A stretch of DNA of 64,000 bases. Origin: a virus (taxonomy: Duplodnaviria; Caudoviricetes). Under the pieces are notes generated by a model, which saw only the letters and a program-made list of their open reading frames with translations, did no database searches and had not been told where the DNA came from. Within the stretch, counting starts at the first letter, position 1. Each line of letters opens with the position of its first letter. A program made the position numbers and the translations under genes. The stretch spans positions 4,883 through 68,882 of IMG/VR virus record IMGVR_UViG_3300020048_000120. The stretch is one strand, 5' to 3'. Below, piece after piece: positions 8,695-61,565 of the stretch.

Positions 8695-9342
8695 TTAAAA
8701 AACATCATCAAATTCTGATCCTTTTGGTGCAGGTGAACTAACAAAACTATCAGCGGACGGTTTAGCTGTTTGAGGTTGTGGAGGTTGTCTAAAAATACTA
8801 GCGTGAGATGTGATAATATTTCTCATAGCTTTAATTACGGCCATAGCTTGTAAAACAGAACCTTCTACTTCAGTAAATTGAGTACCGTCAGCATGGAAGA
8901 TTCTATGCCAGTCACTGATTTTAAATTCAAACTTAATCTTTGGACGATTATCTGAAAGAATACTAATCCAAACCATTCCAGTGTTGTCTTTACCAAACCA
9001 CAGTTCTGATGTTACTTTCTTATCTAACCTTTCTCCAGTGTCACTCCATGGCGTAGTGAAACATTCGAGTTTATATTTAAATGCATTATTATCCAAAATA
9101 CCTTTTTCAAAAAGATCTAAAAAGATAAGTGCTGTTTCTGGATTCATAGCGGCAGAAATAGCTCCACGATTAATGGTATCACTTGGAATATTAGTGTAAA
9201 CCGTAATACGTGGAGAACCTTCTCTTATATACCATGATAATTTACTACGTTTACCTTCAGCACCTGGTGCGTTCATAAACATAGCAAACTTTTCTAACTC
9301 ATTAATCTTTACTGCTGCTTGTGGTTTACTAATATCGTTCAT
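8695..9342 (-). CDS. chmC: Probable ChmC nucleic-acid-binding protein (phiKZ gp67-like)
   Basis: 215 aa gene directly upstream of the gp68-like gene, with a beta-rich core and a disordered acidic tail ending DDVF; assigned by synteny. Confidence 0.55.
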   Translation of the reverse strand: MNDISKPQAAVKINELEKFAMFMNAPGAEGKRSKLSWYIREGSPRITVYTNIPSDTINRGAISAAMNPETALIFLDLFEKGILDNNAFKYKLECFTTPWSDTGERLDKKVTSELWFGKDNTGMVWISILSDNRPKIKFEFKISDWHRIFHADGTQFTEVEGSVLQAMAVIKAMRNIITSHASIFRQPPQPQTAKPSADSFVSSPAPKGSEFDDVF

Positions 9343-9353
9343 TTTAAAATCCT

Positions 9354-10208
9354 TTAAAGTGATGTTAAGAAATTCAAAGAAAAAGTATCTTTCATACTAA
9401 GTTTTAAGTCTAGCAATACTTTAGCGTCCGTCGTCATTGCTGTCCAATCTCTAAGCTTAGCTATATCTACAATAGAACGTCTTAAAGATACAGGCATTGG
9501 ATGTATCAAAATTTTATCACCGAAAACTAATAGTAACCGTTTTATAAACGGAATATTAGAAAAATCTAAATCACCCAATGGCGAGTATTTAGTATACCAA
9601 AGATGTCTCTTCTTTAGTTTACCTGTATTGCTTTCTAACAGATCAAGAGTAGCAAAATTACTATAGCTAATCAGATCATAAGGTATGTGAGTTATAATTA
9701 TACTTTTTTCATTTTTAAACTTAGGCTTTATTTCTGAATCTAGTAAAAGGTGTTCATCTGTATCCTTATACAGAAGTTTTAAAGTCTGAATAAGTTTATA
9801 TGTATAAAACTTTTGAAAATCAGTTTTATCTTGTCTAAAAGTTATACCTTTTTTAGCAGTGTTAACTAAACGATTATATAGACAATAATAATAGATAGGT
9901 TTACATGTGCCACTTCCTTCTGTGGCAAAAAGACTATTAATAATATCTATTTCAAACTCCATGGTGTCTTTTAACTCATCAGGAGAAGCTGCTAAAAAAT
10001 CTTCTTTAGAAATAGATGTAGTTATATTTCTAAATAAAGTCATCAGGTTAATATAAATACTAGAGTAGTTTATAATATCTACTCTAGTAGGCATGTCTCT
10101 CGATGGATCGTAAACATCTGTTCTAGGTGTAAACAATGCTTCTAGTGCTATACCTGTTCCTATACTTAGAAAAAATGATGTTGTCTTTCTATCCGATAAC
10201 TCTGACAT
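9354..10208 (-). CDS. Conserved chimallivirus protein (phiKZ gp66-like)
   Basis: Syntenic after the SbcD-like gene; N-terminal SIGTGIALE and INL.TLFRN pattern. Confidence 0.5.
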   Translation of the reverse strand: MSELSDRKTTSFFLSIGTGIALEALFTPRTDVYDPSRDMPTRVDIINYSSIYINLMTLFRNITTSISKEDFLAASPDELKDTMEFEIDIINSLFATEGSGTCKPIYYYCLYNRLVNTAKKGITFRQDKTDFQKFYTYKLIQTLKLLYKDTDEHLLLDSEIKPKFKNEKSIIITHIPYDLISYSNFATLDLLESNTGKLKKRHLWYTKYSPLGDLDFSNIPFIKRLLLVFGDKILIHPMPVSLRRSIVDIAKLRDWTAMTTDAKVLLDLKLSMKDTFSLNFLTSL

Positions 10209-38114: not shown

Positions 38115-38272
38115 GTTTTTTTTTCCTTAAATTTAATAGTTAAAAATCTGTACCATAGTATAAATAACTAATTAAAATATTTTAGAAACAAAAAAAAACT
38201 ACATACACCAAAAATGGTGTATGTAGCTAAGGCAAGACTTTTTATTAAAAATATCTGATAAGATAACTTAGG

Positions 38273-38346
38273 TGGGCCCACACAGACTCGAACTGTGGAC
38301 CAAAGGATTATGAGTCCTCTGCTCTAACCAACTGAGCTATAGGCCC
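38273..38346 (-). tRNA. tRNA with CAU anticodon, Ile2 (lysidine)-type; CCA not encoded
   Basis: Clean cloverleaf GGGCCTA...GGACT-CAT-AATCC...GTTCGAG...TGGGCCCA followed by CCT; resembles bacterial ileX. Confidence 0.85.
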
Positions 38347-38385
38347 ACCTAAGTTATCTATATCTAATACATCAATTATTTTTTT

Positions 38386-39083: not shown

Positions 39084-39159
39084 TGGTGGGACCGGAAAGA
39101 GTTGAACTTTACATTCTTGGCTTTATGAGAACCCTACTTCACCGTTAAGCTACAGTCTC
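39084..39159 (-). tRNA. Degenerate tRNA with CAU anticodon (Met-like), CCA encoded
   Basis: 76 nt, CT-CAT-AA loop, GTTCAAC T-loop, ACCA end; one mismatch each in the acceptor, anticodon and T stems. Confidence 0.6.
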
Positions 39160-39233
39160 AAATTTCTGTACTATTAAATAAATGGTGCCTGGGATCGGAC
39201 TCGAACCGACATGCCTTACGGCGAGGGATTTTA

Positions 39234-39824
39234 CTTACCACTTCAATTTTCATTGCCATTATAAAGGTATAATGTTTGTGGTCTGGACTATGCTATCGCC
39301 ATATTGAGAAAAAACACAATAAGTAGCTAGATACTCATGCTTTTCAAATATATTTTCTCAACTTAGGCATTCCGTCTCTAGTCTCTACACCTTCCTTAAA
39401 CTAGCAATTATACCGACTATGGAGTTAACCTCTAGTTGCTAGAATTATTGGTCTCTATTAAGGCTTGGCTCGGCGTTAGCGTGTACGATTGGAAGAGTAC
39501 TATTCCGCGTTATTGAAATGGGTAATTACTCCATCCGTTAACAGTTCTTGAGTTAAGGCTAAACTTCTACCCTTAAACCCTCACTCTCTACATTCTTTTT
39601 AATCATCGTATTTAGCGTTCGCCGAATTTACGGAAATACTACTAACGTCTTTCGATTGAGTTGTTACGCCAATAAGTTAATAACAGGGAGTAAGAGTCGA
39701 ACTTACATGAAGAGTCGTGGCATTGATCATCTTCTTACCATGTGCCGTTAGCGTCTACCGTTCCGCCATCCCTGTTAATAACTTACTGACTACCAACTCA
39801 TTTTTCGCTAGTGACCCATTTAAA
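39234..39824 (-). ncRNA. ORF-less group I intron in tRNA-Leu
   Basis: P1 GACU/GGUC with U.G at the splice site; P AAATTCGGCGAAC, Q AACGCCGAGCCAAG, R GTAGAGACTA, S GCATAGTCCAG; P3 TTCCGT/ACGGAA; P7 GACTA/TAGTC; terminal G at 39234. Confidence 0.9.
39673..39785 (-). ncRNA. tRNA-like domain nested in the 5' part of the intron
   Basis: ACAGGGA/TCCCTGT acceptor, TG-GCG-GAACGGTAGA-CGC D arm, GTAAG-TTCGACT-CTTAC T arm; no canonical anticodon arm and no CCA; acceptor extended by about 10 bp. Confidence 0.75.
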
Positions 39825-40233
39825 AGTCCCTTGTGTATACCAAATTTCACCACCCAGGCAAAACACCTTAGATAAATATATTCGACAAAATATACGTATC
39901 ATATTGTCATTACAGCCAAGTGTGGAACTGTAATCAAGACTACAAATTATTAATGTTACCTTCCAAACCAATAATTAAATTAAGGAGGAAATCTAATTAC
40001 CGGCCCTACATGGTTTTAGTATAACAAAAATAACCTTAGCCATTCTACATTTAATTTTGAGCGTTAGTCTTACCGTCAACCCGATACAACTTATTACCTG
40101 TCTTCGATAAAGCATATCTGCCTTAACAACAGTTGGGCGCGTCTCAAACTATTAAATAAGGATATAGCTTCATACTTAACTAGGTTTAGTAACCTTGCAA
40201 GTAAACATACCTAAACTAAGTAGAAGCTATAAC

Positions 40234-40310: not shown

Positions 40311-40574
40311 AAAAAATAGTATTTATGTAAGCTTGATGTTCTAAGCAACTTCTTACTCTCGTAACTTAGTACAGGAGAGCACTGTTATCAAGCCTACAAA
40401 AATACTACTTAATTTTACTACAAGTGTAATCAAAAACTTGCTTATTTTTAATTAACATAGATAATCCTACATAGTTGCACGCTTCCTCTGAAATCACAGG
40501 GTAGTGTACTATGTTGTTAGATATCAAGTATACTATTAATAAGTACATTTTTATTTCCAATGTTTTATAATCAA

Positions 40575-40800
40575 CGTTTGAAGCCGGAGTCGAACCGACA
40601 AGCTTATTAGCGATAATAAATATTTTAATTAAGAGGCTCTTCATCATATATAGGTAACCTTGCCAGAATATCCTATATAGATTCTATTTACCTAAACCCG
40701 TGGCATGGTTTAACGTCGATTTAGGTACCTATTTAATTCTTATTTACTATTGTGTTTACCTATATATACAACACACTGTATATAATTTCACCATTCAAAC
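40575..40800 (-). ncRNA. 226-nt RNA closed by a tRNA-like acceptor stem and T arm
   Basis: 5' GTTTGAA-TG-GTGAAAT and 3' GTCGG-TTCGACT-CCGGC-TTCAAAC-G; internal long-range helix ATATAGGTAA/TTACCTATAT. Confidence 0.55.
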
Positions 40801-40811
40801 GTTTTTATAAA

Positions 40812-40992
40812 TTTAATACAACTAAGAGTCAATAACTACCCCATGCGTCGTTATCATTAACGCACGATACACTGCTAAAATCACACTCTATCACTAGTAA
40901 TGATACAGCATATGGCGAACAACCATATATCATTGTCTAGGTCAGGCGATAACGATTATTCTTAGTCTGGCTGCAGCTACCATTGTATTAAA
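40812..40992 (-). ncRNA. Candidate pseudoknotted structured RNA
   Basis: 10-bp closing stem, 7-bp second stem, two hairpins and an 8-bp loop-to-upstream pairing; starts just downstream of the promoter box at 41004-41013. Confidence 0.55.
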
Positions 40993-59498: not shown

Positions 59499-61565
59499 AT
59501 GGCTAATCAAATTGTTAATGCAGCACCTATGGTTATAGATTACGGAACTCAAGATCTGAGTACTCGTCTTCTGCCACGGGAACCGGAATTTATTCCACAA
59601 CATCTACCTAAATTTTTTATTTATGCTCAAAAAGGTCCTACTGAACCTCAATTAGTTGTTGGATCAGAACGAGATCGTATTTATGGAACTGAAACTTTTA
59701 ACCTACGCGGTAAATTTGCAAACCACGCCACCGTATTTGCAAATTTAGTAAATGCTGAAGGTAATTCATGTATGCTGCAACGTGTTGTGCCAGATGATTC
59801 TGGTGAAGAGGCACAGATGACTATTTCGTTATCTGTTACTTCAGCAAATATTGATCTATATGAACGTGCGGCTAATGGTTCTCTTCTTTTAGATTCCAGT
59901 GGTACTCCTATAATTAAAACAGTTTCAGGTGCCCCTCAATCTACTAGCGGTTATAAAATTAAATTTATTGTCTCTAATGATTATAGTGATGGAACTGTAA
60001 CTACGTCAGGTAGTACAACAACATATCCTATTTTTAGTTTTAAAACTAGCAGCATAGGTGAATACGGTAATAACTCAGGTGTTAGAATTTGGGCTCCTAT
60101 TCAAACACCTACTAAAGCTATGCCTACTAAAATGATGAAGGCATATAAAGCATACCCCTACTTTATTTCCGTAGTCAATCGTACAGATAATACAGCTCCT
60201 TTAAAAGTAGTTGAAACTTTATTTGGTGAACAACAAATAATGTGTTCATTTAAAGCTGGTGTATTAGATCCAATTACTGATAAACAAATTAATATTAATG
60301 ATATTTTTATTAATAGTTATCAGAATTTAAATGATCTTCGGTATCCAAAAGTCTTCGGTGAGTTTAAAGATTTTATTGCTTTTGAAGAAAACATTGATAA
60401 TATTGTTGGTTTATTTTATGCTAAAGAAATAGCACATTCTAATACCGCGTATAGTGATTTTAAATCTGGTGTAGATGCAGATGCAAATGAAAAACATTTG
60501 TTTAATTTTGTTAGCTGCGTATCTTCATTTGGTGCTCCTTATCATAGCGTTATTTTTATCGACGATGCTGATTCTGTTAGATTAACTGAATATAGTACCG
60601 TATTTGCTAGAGGTGGTCAAGACGGTACTATTAACGATGAAAAGTTTGCTGTTTTAGTTAAAAATGAAATGGAAGCTTATCTAAATCCAGATAACTTTGT
60701 TCAAGAACTAGCAGTTAATGTTGAATCTATTATTTATGACTCAGGATTTCCGTTAGCTACTAAGTATTCTTTGTGTTCTTTTATAGCTAATCGTAAAGAT
60801 ACTTTTGTAGTGTTAGCTACGCACACTGTTGGAGAGAATGTTTTAGAAGCATCAGAAGAACATTCTATTGCTATTGCGTTACGTACACGTTTACAGATGT
60901 ATCCTGAATCTGATTACTTTGGTACTCCTGTTATGCGTGGCATGATCGTTGGTAGATCTGGTAAATTACGTAATAGTCAATATACTAAATTCTTACCCTT
61001 AACAGCTGAAGTAGCTATTAAGTCAGCTAAATATATGGGTGCTGGAAACGGTAGCTGGAAAAATGGTTCTCATTTTGATGGTGCGCCAGGTAGTATTGTA
61101 AACTACATGACCGATATTAATATTACTTGGGTTTCCACTTCTAGTCGTAATAGAAATTGGGACGTAGGTCTTAATTGGGTACAATCTTATGATCGCAGAT
61201 CGTATTTCTTCCCTGCATTAAAAACAGTATACGATAATGATACATCTGTTCTTAATAGCTACTTTACGGCCTTAGCTATTTGTCAGATTAATAAAGTTTC
61301 ACATGCGGCATGGCGTGAATTTACAGGTGTTTCACATCTTACCAATGCACAACTTGCTGATCGTGTAAACCAATTTGTGATAGCTCGTACTCAGAAGAGA
61401 TTCGATGAAAGATTTGTAATCGTTCCAGATACTCTGTATACTGATATGGACTTATTACGTGGTTTTAGCTGGACTTTACCAGTCAAGATTTATGCGCCTA
61501 ATATGAAGACCGTCATGACGACTTATGTTCAGGCTTATAGAATTGAAGATTTACAAACAGCTTAA
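59499..61565 (+). CDS. Tail sheath protein (phiKZ gp29-like)
   Basis: 688 aa; PQHLPKF, GG.DG and YDSGF motifs; C-terminal LRG.SWTL.VKIYA.NMKTV. Confidence 0.9.
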   Translation: MANQIVNAAPMVIDYGTQDLSTRLLPREPEFIPQHLPKFFIYAQKGPTEPQLVVGSERDRIYGTETFNLRGKFANHATVFANLVNAEGNSCMLQRVVPDDSGEEAQMTISLSVTSANIDLYERAANGSLLLDSSGTPIIKTVSGAPQSTSGYKIKFIVSNDYSDGTVTTSGSTTTYPIFSFKTSSIGEYGNNSGVRIWAPIQTPTKAMPTKMMKAYKAYPYFISVVNRTDNTAPLKVVETLFGEQQIMCSFKAGVLDPITDKQININDIFINSYQNLNDLRYPKVFGEFKDFIAFEENIDNIVGLFYAKEIAHSNTAYSDFKSGVDADANEKHLFNFVSCVSSFGAPYHSVIFIDDADSVRLTEYSTVFARGGQDGTINDEKFAVLVKNEMEAYLNPDNFVQELAVNVESIIYDSGFPLATKYSLCSFIANRKDTFVVLATHTVGENVLEASEEHSIAIALRTRLQMYPESDYFGTPVMRGMIVGRSGKLRNSQYTKFLPLTAEVAIKSAKYMGAGNGSWKNGSHFDGAPGSIVNYMTDINITWVSTSSRNRNWDVGLNWVQSYDRRSYFFPALKTVYDNDTSVLNSYFTALAICQINKVSHAAWREFTGVSHLTNAQLADRVNQFVIARTQKRFDERFVIVPDTLYTDMDLLRGFSWTLPVKIYAPNMKTVMTTYVQAYRIEDLQTA

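Follow-up and report, generated by a model that had tools for sequence, protein, structure and literature searches.

In the 64,000-nucleotide (nt) stretch of phage DNA analysed here, called the window (part of IMG/VR virus record IMGVR_UViG_3300020048_000120), the minus strand carries an element of 226 nt which is a complete class II, leucine (Leu)-type tRNA shell with two insertions; the 5' end of its RNA lies at window position 40800 and the 3' end at 40575. The analysis gives about an even chance to the reading that this element is the gene for a tRNA-shaped, non-decoding stable RNA, a divergent variant of the phage class to which RNA1 of phage T5 belongs. The reading is favoured because the shell is undamaged despite two insertions, because the junction is a seamless helix of 10 base pairs (bp), because the insert is structured and lies in an operon of structured RNAs, and because the class offers a precedent. 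All 23 of the 23 shell pairs are intact and are standard pairs, and the universal tertiary nucleotides are present throughout (U8, A14, A15-U48, G18G19, A21, G53, U54-U55-C56, A58 and C61).

A first-pass annotation, made from the sequence alone, had pointed to an RNA whose two ends rebuild an acceptor stem and a T arm. The observation turned out to be stronger than this description, in which the whole class II shell, with its D stem, anticodon stem and variable arm, had been overlooked. The perfect 7-bp acceptor stem (GUUUGAA/UUCAAAC), to which the flanking AAC/GUU adds 3 bp, and the T arm GUCGG-UUCGACU-CCGGC were both borne out, as was the likeness to the neighbouring tRNA-Leu(UAA), the 5' end of which is found 722 nt downstream and which shares UGGUGAAAUU without a change. 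The statement that ~170 nt of helices replace the anticodon arm has to be revised: ~128 nt replace the anticodon loop alone, and the stem AUAGU/AUUAU as well as the Leu-type variable arm GCU-AAUA-AGC are kept. A hairpin formed by TATATACA and TGTATATA is indeed present but is not part of an anticodon-arm replacement; since the D stem closes as GUG/CAC, it sits in the D loop, in which UAGGUAAA supplies G18G19. The long-range stem proposed between ATATAGGTAA and TTACCTATAT has an ensemble probability of ~0, because its 3' strand pairs locally. What stands in place of the anticodon loop is a 10-bp helix that encloses an A, ~112 nt and then UUAAAA, in other words a split remnant of a Leu(UAA) loop on a doubled stem.

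Folding calculations agree with this architecture for most of the shell. The unconstrained minimum free energy of the whole RNA is -52.4 kcal/mol (z = -2.8), and the acceptor, T, variable and anticodon helices are recovered without constraints at pair probabilities (P) of 0.87-0.97, the 3-bp D stem at P 0.25. The insert (40613-40750) folds better than its shuffles (z = -2.85, 1/200). Four sites in the window satisfy a scanner that asks for U8, a T arm, an acceptor stem of 7 bp and a D stem or arm with GG, namely the element, a second element nested in an intron, the split tRNA-Leu and one tRNA, against none in 60 dinucleotide shuffles.

The closest known counterpart is found in phage T5, whose record annotates rna1 (NC_005859 30501-30644) as a 'tRNA-like stable RNA with unknown functions', besides RNA2, RNAI, RNAIII and RNAIV. 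T5 RNA1 has a Leu-type shell with ~40 nt inserted after the anticodon stem's 5' strand and ahead of an intact CUUAAAA loop, and it occurs in full length in 487 phage records, down to ~75% identity. Like the candidate, it keeps U8-G9, a 3-bp D stem, a GG D loop, the T arm, the acceptor stem and the variable arm, it carries its insert 5' of a remnant Leu(UAA) loop, and it is located within a cluster of phage tRNAs and on their strand, uncalled by tRNA finders. The two inserts are without sequence homology, and the sizes differ: T5 RNA1 comprises 144 nt with a ~40-nt insert and the whole CUUAAAA, the candidate 226 nt with a ~112-nt insert and UUAAAA only. The doubling of the stem to 10 bp, the D-loop hairpin and G73 belong to the candidate alone, and no orthologue of it was found, in contrast to the 487 records with T5 RNA1. 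In T4, rnaC (species 1 RNA) has a large internal domain enclosed by its ends, which form an acceptor-like stem and a T arm of canonical type (CCGGG-UUCGAAU-CCCGG); this is likewise a stable RNA of a phage tRNA operon with an acceptor-like stem beside a T arm, but it has no D arm, and there are two U.U mismatches in its acceptor-like stem. A model of the whole element found nothing at the T4 locus and the model of the Leu-shell family described below gave rnaC 17 bits, i.e., no detectable homology. In this context one should recall that stable tRNA-shaped RNAs in phage tRNA clusters, such as RNA C and RNA D of T4 and RNA1 and RNA2 of T5, have been known for decades; to our knowledge, none of these four has a known function. 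The role of T4 rnaC is still listed as unknown (PMC3014915, PMC9697503).

That T5 RNA1 does not stand alone emerged from a scan of viral contigs for a Leu-type D loop followed by a T loop 70-100 nt further on, a spacing which fits neither a normal tRNA-Leu nor two adjacent tRNAs. At least 117 loci were obtained, against ~1 expected. Among the matches listed, 108 instances show paired acceptor and T stems, 98 of them distinct, with lengths of 110-150 nt; the family was pre-filtered for this pairing, yet no more than 9 of the 117 listed loci gave no passing element. None of the 98 distinct members was called a tRNA by ARAGORN, no Rfam family matched them, and their inserts have no motif in common. 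Across 41 diverse members, pairing in the three shell helices amounts to 98.7%, and 12 of the 15 pairs show compensatory changes, a result reached in none of 500 shuffles, whereas controls with slid helices are ~40% paired. A class of Leu-shell RNAs with covariation in the shell helices exists. As no more than 28 of the 98 members lie within 1 kb of a called tRNA, location in a tRNA cluster is not a defining feature of the family. The remnant CUUAAAA is kept in T5 RNA1 and in two family members (L335 and L322). Among the 98 distinct members (L229-L345), the bases after the discriminator are CAA in 38, CUA in 12 and CCA in 5, and the acceptor sequence AGUCAGG is common to 28.

The first-pass annotation had placed the candidate and the intron-nested element in a small family of anticodon-less tRNA mimics, which was right in kind and much too small in scale: the model of the very large phage family gives the nested element, a member of the same operon, 40.7 bits (E 3e-9) and the candidate 23.9 bits (E 2e-4), in the latter case end to end (model positions 1-131). 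A 140-nt element in a related phage (L064) scores 43.5 bits. The candidate has the features by which members of the class are recognized, that is, a Leu-type shell, an anticodon arm split by an insert that is unrelated between members, and no possibility of being called as a tRNA. As judged from its sequence, it qualifies by architecture and is an outlier by detail.

A number of observations weigh against its assignment to the class and against a function. Ordinary tRNA-Leu genes score 28-41 bits with the family model, above the candidate, so that the 23.9 bits show a Leu shell and not membership as such. The discriminator is A73 in 74 of the 98 family members and G73 in the candidate; the D loop of the family is a nearly invariant GGAAUUGGUAGA, whereas that of the candidate, AAAU..UAGGUAAA, is split and does not read GAAUUGGUAGA; and the D-loop hairpin is present in no other member. 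Most members lack the anticodon stem and the variable arm, both of which the candidate, itself AT-rich, keeps, and its insert is much larger than those of the family, whose members measure 110-150 nt overall. The GC content of the shell is 39%, compared with 45-54% in the three called tRNAs, an AT drift toward the content of the genome, and three of the four genuine tRNAs of the operon encode CCA, which the element does not. Retention in related phages was not observed in 50 records and 755 kb of sequence, and the nearest relative is far removed (59% identity for the closest PhuZ in 5.8 billion proteins). Since no orthologue was found, neither the element nor its insert has covariation or comparative support.

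In the data searched, the element is a singleton. A blastn search with 1.7 kb against 50,697 phage records gave no match, an exact 24-mer covering T arm and acceptor stem was absent from viral contigs and a 21-mer from 185,579 prokaryote genomes, and the relatives sought via the neighbouring open reading frames (ORFs; 246 and 411 amino acids) and the DNA polymerase included none close enough. Alignment of PhuZ gave 62 related viral contigs (L002-L063), and blastn and nhmmer returned no orthologue from these PhuZ-anchored loci. With the whole-element model, nothing was found in 50 of these related jumbo-phage records, behind a weak first-look filter which also missed tRNA-Leu genes scoring 41 bits with this model. 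Applied directly to 755 kb of the nearest relatives and to the relatives' tRNA regions, the same model matched tRNA-Leu shells alone (33-41 bits for tRNA-Leu(UAA) genes) and no orthologue. A scan with two anchors (AUGCCACG...GGCAAGGUUAC) gave 112 metagenome and 2 viral matches, the number expected by chance, and none of them resembles the element.

Neither ARAGORN at default settings nor Rfam (E <= 10 on 301 nt) reported a tRNA, a transfer-messenger RNA (tmRNA), a Y RNA or a group I intron; Rfam returned noise alone (rli37, a snoRNA). An Rfam scan for tmRNA and YrlA had been advised by the first-pass annotation, whose statements that the element has no CCA, no G3.U70 and no group I core were upheld by the sequence and by Rfam. 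A tmRNA depends on G3.U70, lacks a D stem and includes a tag reading frame; YrlA has a permuted topology, with ends that form the Ro60-binding stem and a tRNA-like module in a distal position. Both the tmRNA domain and the YrlA-type Y RNAs are non-decoding RNAs that mimic the upper body of a tRNA and are handled by tRNA enzymes, and they had been put forward as analogues. The element has U3-A70 at the pair in question, ARAGORN finds no tmRNA, and RF00023 gives 8.6 bits on the T arm alone. Its topology is opposite to that of YrlA or a Y RNA, since its ends form the acceptor stem; there is no Rfam match, and no TROVE domain was found in the 68.9-kb record (~25% of the genome). Without G3.U70, tag ORF, Ro60 gene and Y RNA topology, these are not the nearest analogues; T5 RNA1 and RNA2 and T4 RNA C are nearer. 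An overlapping 80-amino-acid ORF (40405-40647, minus strand), the conservation of which had been raised as an objection to an RNA gene, is without a homologue in 5.8 billion proteins and lacks a ribosome-binding site, and it is rejected as a gene.

Could the element be a real tRNA with unconventional introns, spliced to Leu(UAA) or to a 'stop-reading' tRNA with a UUA anticodon? This is considered very improbable. The anticodon arm of a canonical tRNA, a 5-bp stem with a 7-nt loop presenting the anticodon, is absent, and no single excision restores a clean one. At a threshold of 80% and with introns allowed, ARAGORN does propose an 86-nt tRNA(UUA) with a 142-nt intron, the relatives of the phage have group I introns at unusual sites, and the family members L335 and L322 regain a perfect CUUAAAA arm if ~50 nt are removed. 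The ARAGORN solution, however, loses the GG of the D loop and with it a canonical D arm, and it has U-A instead of U.G at the 5' site and no terminal G; it was rejected. When 59,850 two-segment excision variants were built (the D-loop hairpin plus every second segment), ARAGORN accepted thousands with arbitrary anticodons, which shows an intact shell and no preference for any one excision. No unique or clean anticodon arm was among them, and the Leu(UAA) solutions carry two stem mismatches. Self-splicing of the insert is not credible, as at 112-128 nt it is too short for a group I core: Rfam Intron_gpI does not match, the P3-P9 core is missing, and so are a U.G at the 5' site and a G before UUAAAA. 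A bulge-helix-bulge motif was likewise not found, nor was an RtcB gene in the 68.9-kb record.

Derivation from a tRNA-Leu, as suggested in the first-pass annotation, is supported at the sequence level by the Leu-type arms throughout, by the matches of the whole-element model to the tRNA-Leu(UAA) genes of relatives and by the remnant UUAAAA. Compared with the tRNA-Leu of the window, 10 of the 23 stem pairs differ and all of these still pair, and the loops are conserved, which favours the stable-RNA reading. An intron-split tRNA-Leu(UAA), as known from cyanobacteria and plastids and present in the window at 39185-39853, has the shell of the same isoacceptor, an insertion in the anticodon-loop region and a similar 5' junction; the element differs from it in having neither the P3-P9 core nor the U.G at the 5' site nor the terminal G, and in an insert of ~112-128 nt. 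Over its first 18 nt, the insert agrees at 12 positions with the beginning of the neighbouring group I intron, a value reached by 48 of 5000 shuffles (p ~0.01), and the score of the whole insert against this intron was reached by 20 of 300 shuffles, which is not significant. The most economical history, and a likely one on this evidence, is that of a duplicated tRNA-Leu(UAA) with an intron from which the core was lost.

Such a history may also have ended in a dead gene, in which a duplicated tRNA-Leu(UAA), after deletion of the core of the group I intron in its anticodon loop, could be neither spliced nor used for decoding any longer, later received a palindromic hairpin in the D loop and has been drifting without function. 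This is possible, if on the unlikely side. The absence of an anticodon arm, the lack of an orthologue in the data searched, the AT drift of the shell, G73 and the lack of CCA fit this picture, as do the UUAAAA remnant, the intron-like 5' junction and the borderline likeness of the whole insert to the intron. The tRNA clusters of the clade are riddled with introns and insertions, and a working tRNA-Leu(UAA) 722 nt away makes this copy redundant. On the other hand, a relic that has taken up at least two insertions should show point damage, and the shell pairs and tertiary nucleotides are all intact, in contrast to a called tRNA of the same operon (39084-39159), which has six non-standard pairs. 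The junction is a seamless 10-bp helix and not a loop with an insertion scar, and no group I core motif survives. Furthermore, T5 RNA1 has the same 'relic' anatomy and yet is a stable RNA kept in 487 genomes.

If the element is the gene for a stable RNA, it would be transcribed together with the neighbouring tRNAs in a minus-strand operon ending at 38228-38197 and excised by the enzymes of tRNA maturation, with ribonuclease (RNase) P acting at G1, 3' trimming after G73 and perhaps addition of CCA; this can be rationalized since the acceptor/T-arm minihelix and the elbow are what these enzymes read. The product would build up as a stable, non-decoding RNA of ~226 nt; its shell would be the chassis that allows processing and confers stability, and its working cargo would be the 128-nt three-way-junction domain. 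The same capacity to be cleaved underlies a further alternative, in which the shell is a cis-acting processing mark, a 'punctuation' for RNase P and RNase Z between a structured RNA at 40812-40992 and the downstream tRNAs, and the excised piece has no role. An acceptor/T-arm minihelix suffices for RNase P, the element lies between other structured segments of one transcription unit, and leader-trailer stems flank other members of the operon, for instance the 18-bp stem at the tRNA 38271-38346. For mere punctuation, however, the D arm, the Levitt pair, the variable arm, the 128-nt domain and the D-loop hairpin would be superfluous, and the real tRNAs already provide cleavage sites; this alternative is regarded as improbable.

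Charging of the stable RNA with leucine would be unlikely under the rules known from E. coli because of G73 and the D-loop hairpin. The leucyl-tRNA synthetase (LeuRS) of E. coli needs neither the anticodon nor the variable arm, and it requires A73, A15-U48 and a correctly placed G18G19. G73 has been described as an antideterminant for LeuRS (PMC9976931). In bacteria, the engineered tRNA scaffold of Ponchon and Dardel, a chimera whose anticodon stem takes the insert, is stable and is both processed and protected by the tRNA machinery of the cell (PMC3753655). It resembles the candidate in keeping the acceptor, T and D arms and in using the anticodon stem-loop, held as a hairpin, as the insertion site; being man-made, it shows no more than the feasibility of the proposed mechanism.

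Tentatively, and with rather low confidence, the element may be taken as a natural tRNA scaffold, with which the phage turned an intron-bearing copy of tRNA-Leu(UAA) into a carrier for a cargo that acts, for example, as decoy or sponge of a host RNA or protein. The upper body would then recruit RNase P and the 3'-end and tRNA-modifying enzymes and shield the RNA from decay, and G73 and the D-loop hairpin would keep it off LeuRS and the ribosome. If this is true, tRNA-Leu genes in which insertions into the anticodon loop were no longer removed gave rise to the class, with T5 RNA1 and hundreds of relatives that lack annotation; UUAAAA and the intron-like junction would be traces of such a descent from an intron-bearing tRNA-Leu(UAA). 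New in the present case are the genome of a nucleus-forming jumbo phage as host of such a gene, the much larger cargo and the second insertion site in the D loop. Provided that it is expressed, the element would be a good test case for the role of the shell in processing and stability, in charging or as a decoy.

The window represents 64 kb of a 68.9-kb viral contig, which by estimate corresponds to ~25% of the genome. The source is an uncultured, phiKZ-like, nucleus-forming jumbo phage, with genes for chimallin, a divergent family B DNA polymerase, PhuZ and an RNA polymerase beta subunit, the last interrupted by a group I intron; the closest cultured relative has 39% identity in the DNA polymerase. 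Genes for TROVE (Ro60), a CCA-adding enzyme and RtcB were not found in the 68.9-kb record, about a quarter of the genome. The element is set in a nearly ORF-free stretch on the minus strand which runs from ~41000 to a strong terminator at 38228-38197. That these 2.8 kb are almost wholly non-coding and structured, in a phage that is otherwise gene-dense, counts in favour of a stable RNA gene. In the direction of transcription, a structured leader is followed by the element, a long hairpin, tRNA-Arg(UCU), a second long hairpin, the tRNA-Leu(UAA) with its group I intron, a weak tRNA(CAU), two small paralogous ORFs and a good tRNA(CAU). The tRNA-Leu(UAA) (39185-39853, minus strand) is split by an intron of ~590 nt, which itself holds a tRNA-like module. 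The parts of the element are compiled in the table.

Table. Parts of the 226-nt element in the order of the RNA, 5' to 3' (window coordinates; P, pair probability)
Feature	Window position	Strand	Remark
Acceptor stem, 5' strand GUUUGAA (RNA 1-7)	40794-40800	-	Flank AAC (40801-40803) adds 3 bp; mean P 0.95
U8 G9 and Leu-type D arm: GUG, AAAU + 22-nt hairpin + UAGGUAAA, CAC	40752-40793	-	UGGUGAAAUU identical to the tRNA-Leu of the window
Perfect 22-nt hairpin (8 bp, 6-nt loop), D-loop insertion between U17 and G18	40763-40784	-	P 0.88
A26 and 5' strand of the 10-bp 'anticodon' helix (AUAGU + AAAUA)	40741-40751	-	P 0.95-0.97
Insert of ~112 nt: helix AAUUAA/UUAAUU, three-way junction, two hairpins with AUGCCACG and GGCAAGGUUAC in their loops	40629-40740	-	Folding
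UUAAAA, likely remnant of positions 33-38 of a Leu(UAA) anticodon loop	40623-40628	-	Same remnant in T5 RNA1, L335 and L322
3' strand of the 10-bp helix (UAUUU + AUUAU)	40613-40622	-	Folding
Class II variable region C-GCU-AAUA-AGC-UU	40600-40612	-	Last U48 can pair with A15; P 0.87
T arm GUCGG-UUCGACU-CCGGC	40583-40599	-	P 0.93
Acceptor 3' strand UUCAAAC and discriminator G73	40575-40582	-	Followed by UUG, no CCA; sequence

Two short motifs of the insert recur in the window. The first, AUGCCACG, is present three times (39716-39723, 40699-40706 and 60936-60943, all on the minus strand) against 0.5 expected and a count reached in none of 100 shuffles, and two of its copies sit in the domains which replace the anticodon arm of the two tRNA-like elements. 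The second, GCAAGGUUAC (40190-40201 and 40655-40666), is common to the apical loop of the candidate insert and to the hairpin that follows tRNA-Arg. In the wider Leu-shell family, neither of the two was met again. A search for targets by complementarity gave three 14-mers within the window (E 0.04 each), which is unconvincing.

The tRNA-like module within the tRNA-Leu(UAA) intron (39682-39775, minus strand) sits on a 20-bp stem. The homologous intron of L064 (11000-11830) has a different, short hairpin at this place, and the module looks as if it had been inserted into a peripheral loop of the intron. In three other relatives, tRNA-Leu(UAA) genes containing a group I intron (L065 4586-4916, minus strand; L066 4738-5045, minus strand; L067 4561-4886, plus strand; Rfam 60-84 bits) carry the intron directly after the D stem, at positions 25/26, which leaves the complete anticodon stem-loop to the 3' exon. 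In a survey of bacterial tRNA introns, the sites listed are confined to the anticodon loop (bioRxiv 10.1101/2020.01.27.920355).

Further unusual RNAs were encountered in the tRNA regions of relatives. The 140-nt Leu-shell RNA of L064 (6901-7041, minus strand), a complete relative of 245 kb, has a CUCAUGA-containing hairpin and a 9-bp extra arm. Two related phages (L066 3407-3501, minus strand; L068 9531-9624, plus strand) have in common a conserved RNA of 94-95 nt which is not called as a tRNA and to which the Leu-shell model gives no more than 13.5 bits; it combines a canonical T arm and a 12-bp extended acceptor-like stem with a small D-like hairpin and a long middle arm that lacks an anticodon loop. 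In L047 (13923-14191, plus strand), the halves of a tRNA with the acceptor GGGCCUA are apparently parted by ~195 nt that hold a complete tRNA-Met, and in L067 (5102-5763, plus strand) a 560-nt insert which holds a long open frame interrupts another tRNA. The tRNA region of L064 also contains, at 9271-9360 on the minus strand, a 90-nt match to positions 2126-2215 of bacterial 23S rRNA (63.6 bits). In the window itself, the tRNA(CAU) at 38271-38346 is enclosed by a perfect 18-bp leader-trailer stem (38261-38359, minus strand), a possible double-strand processing site.

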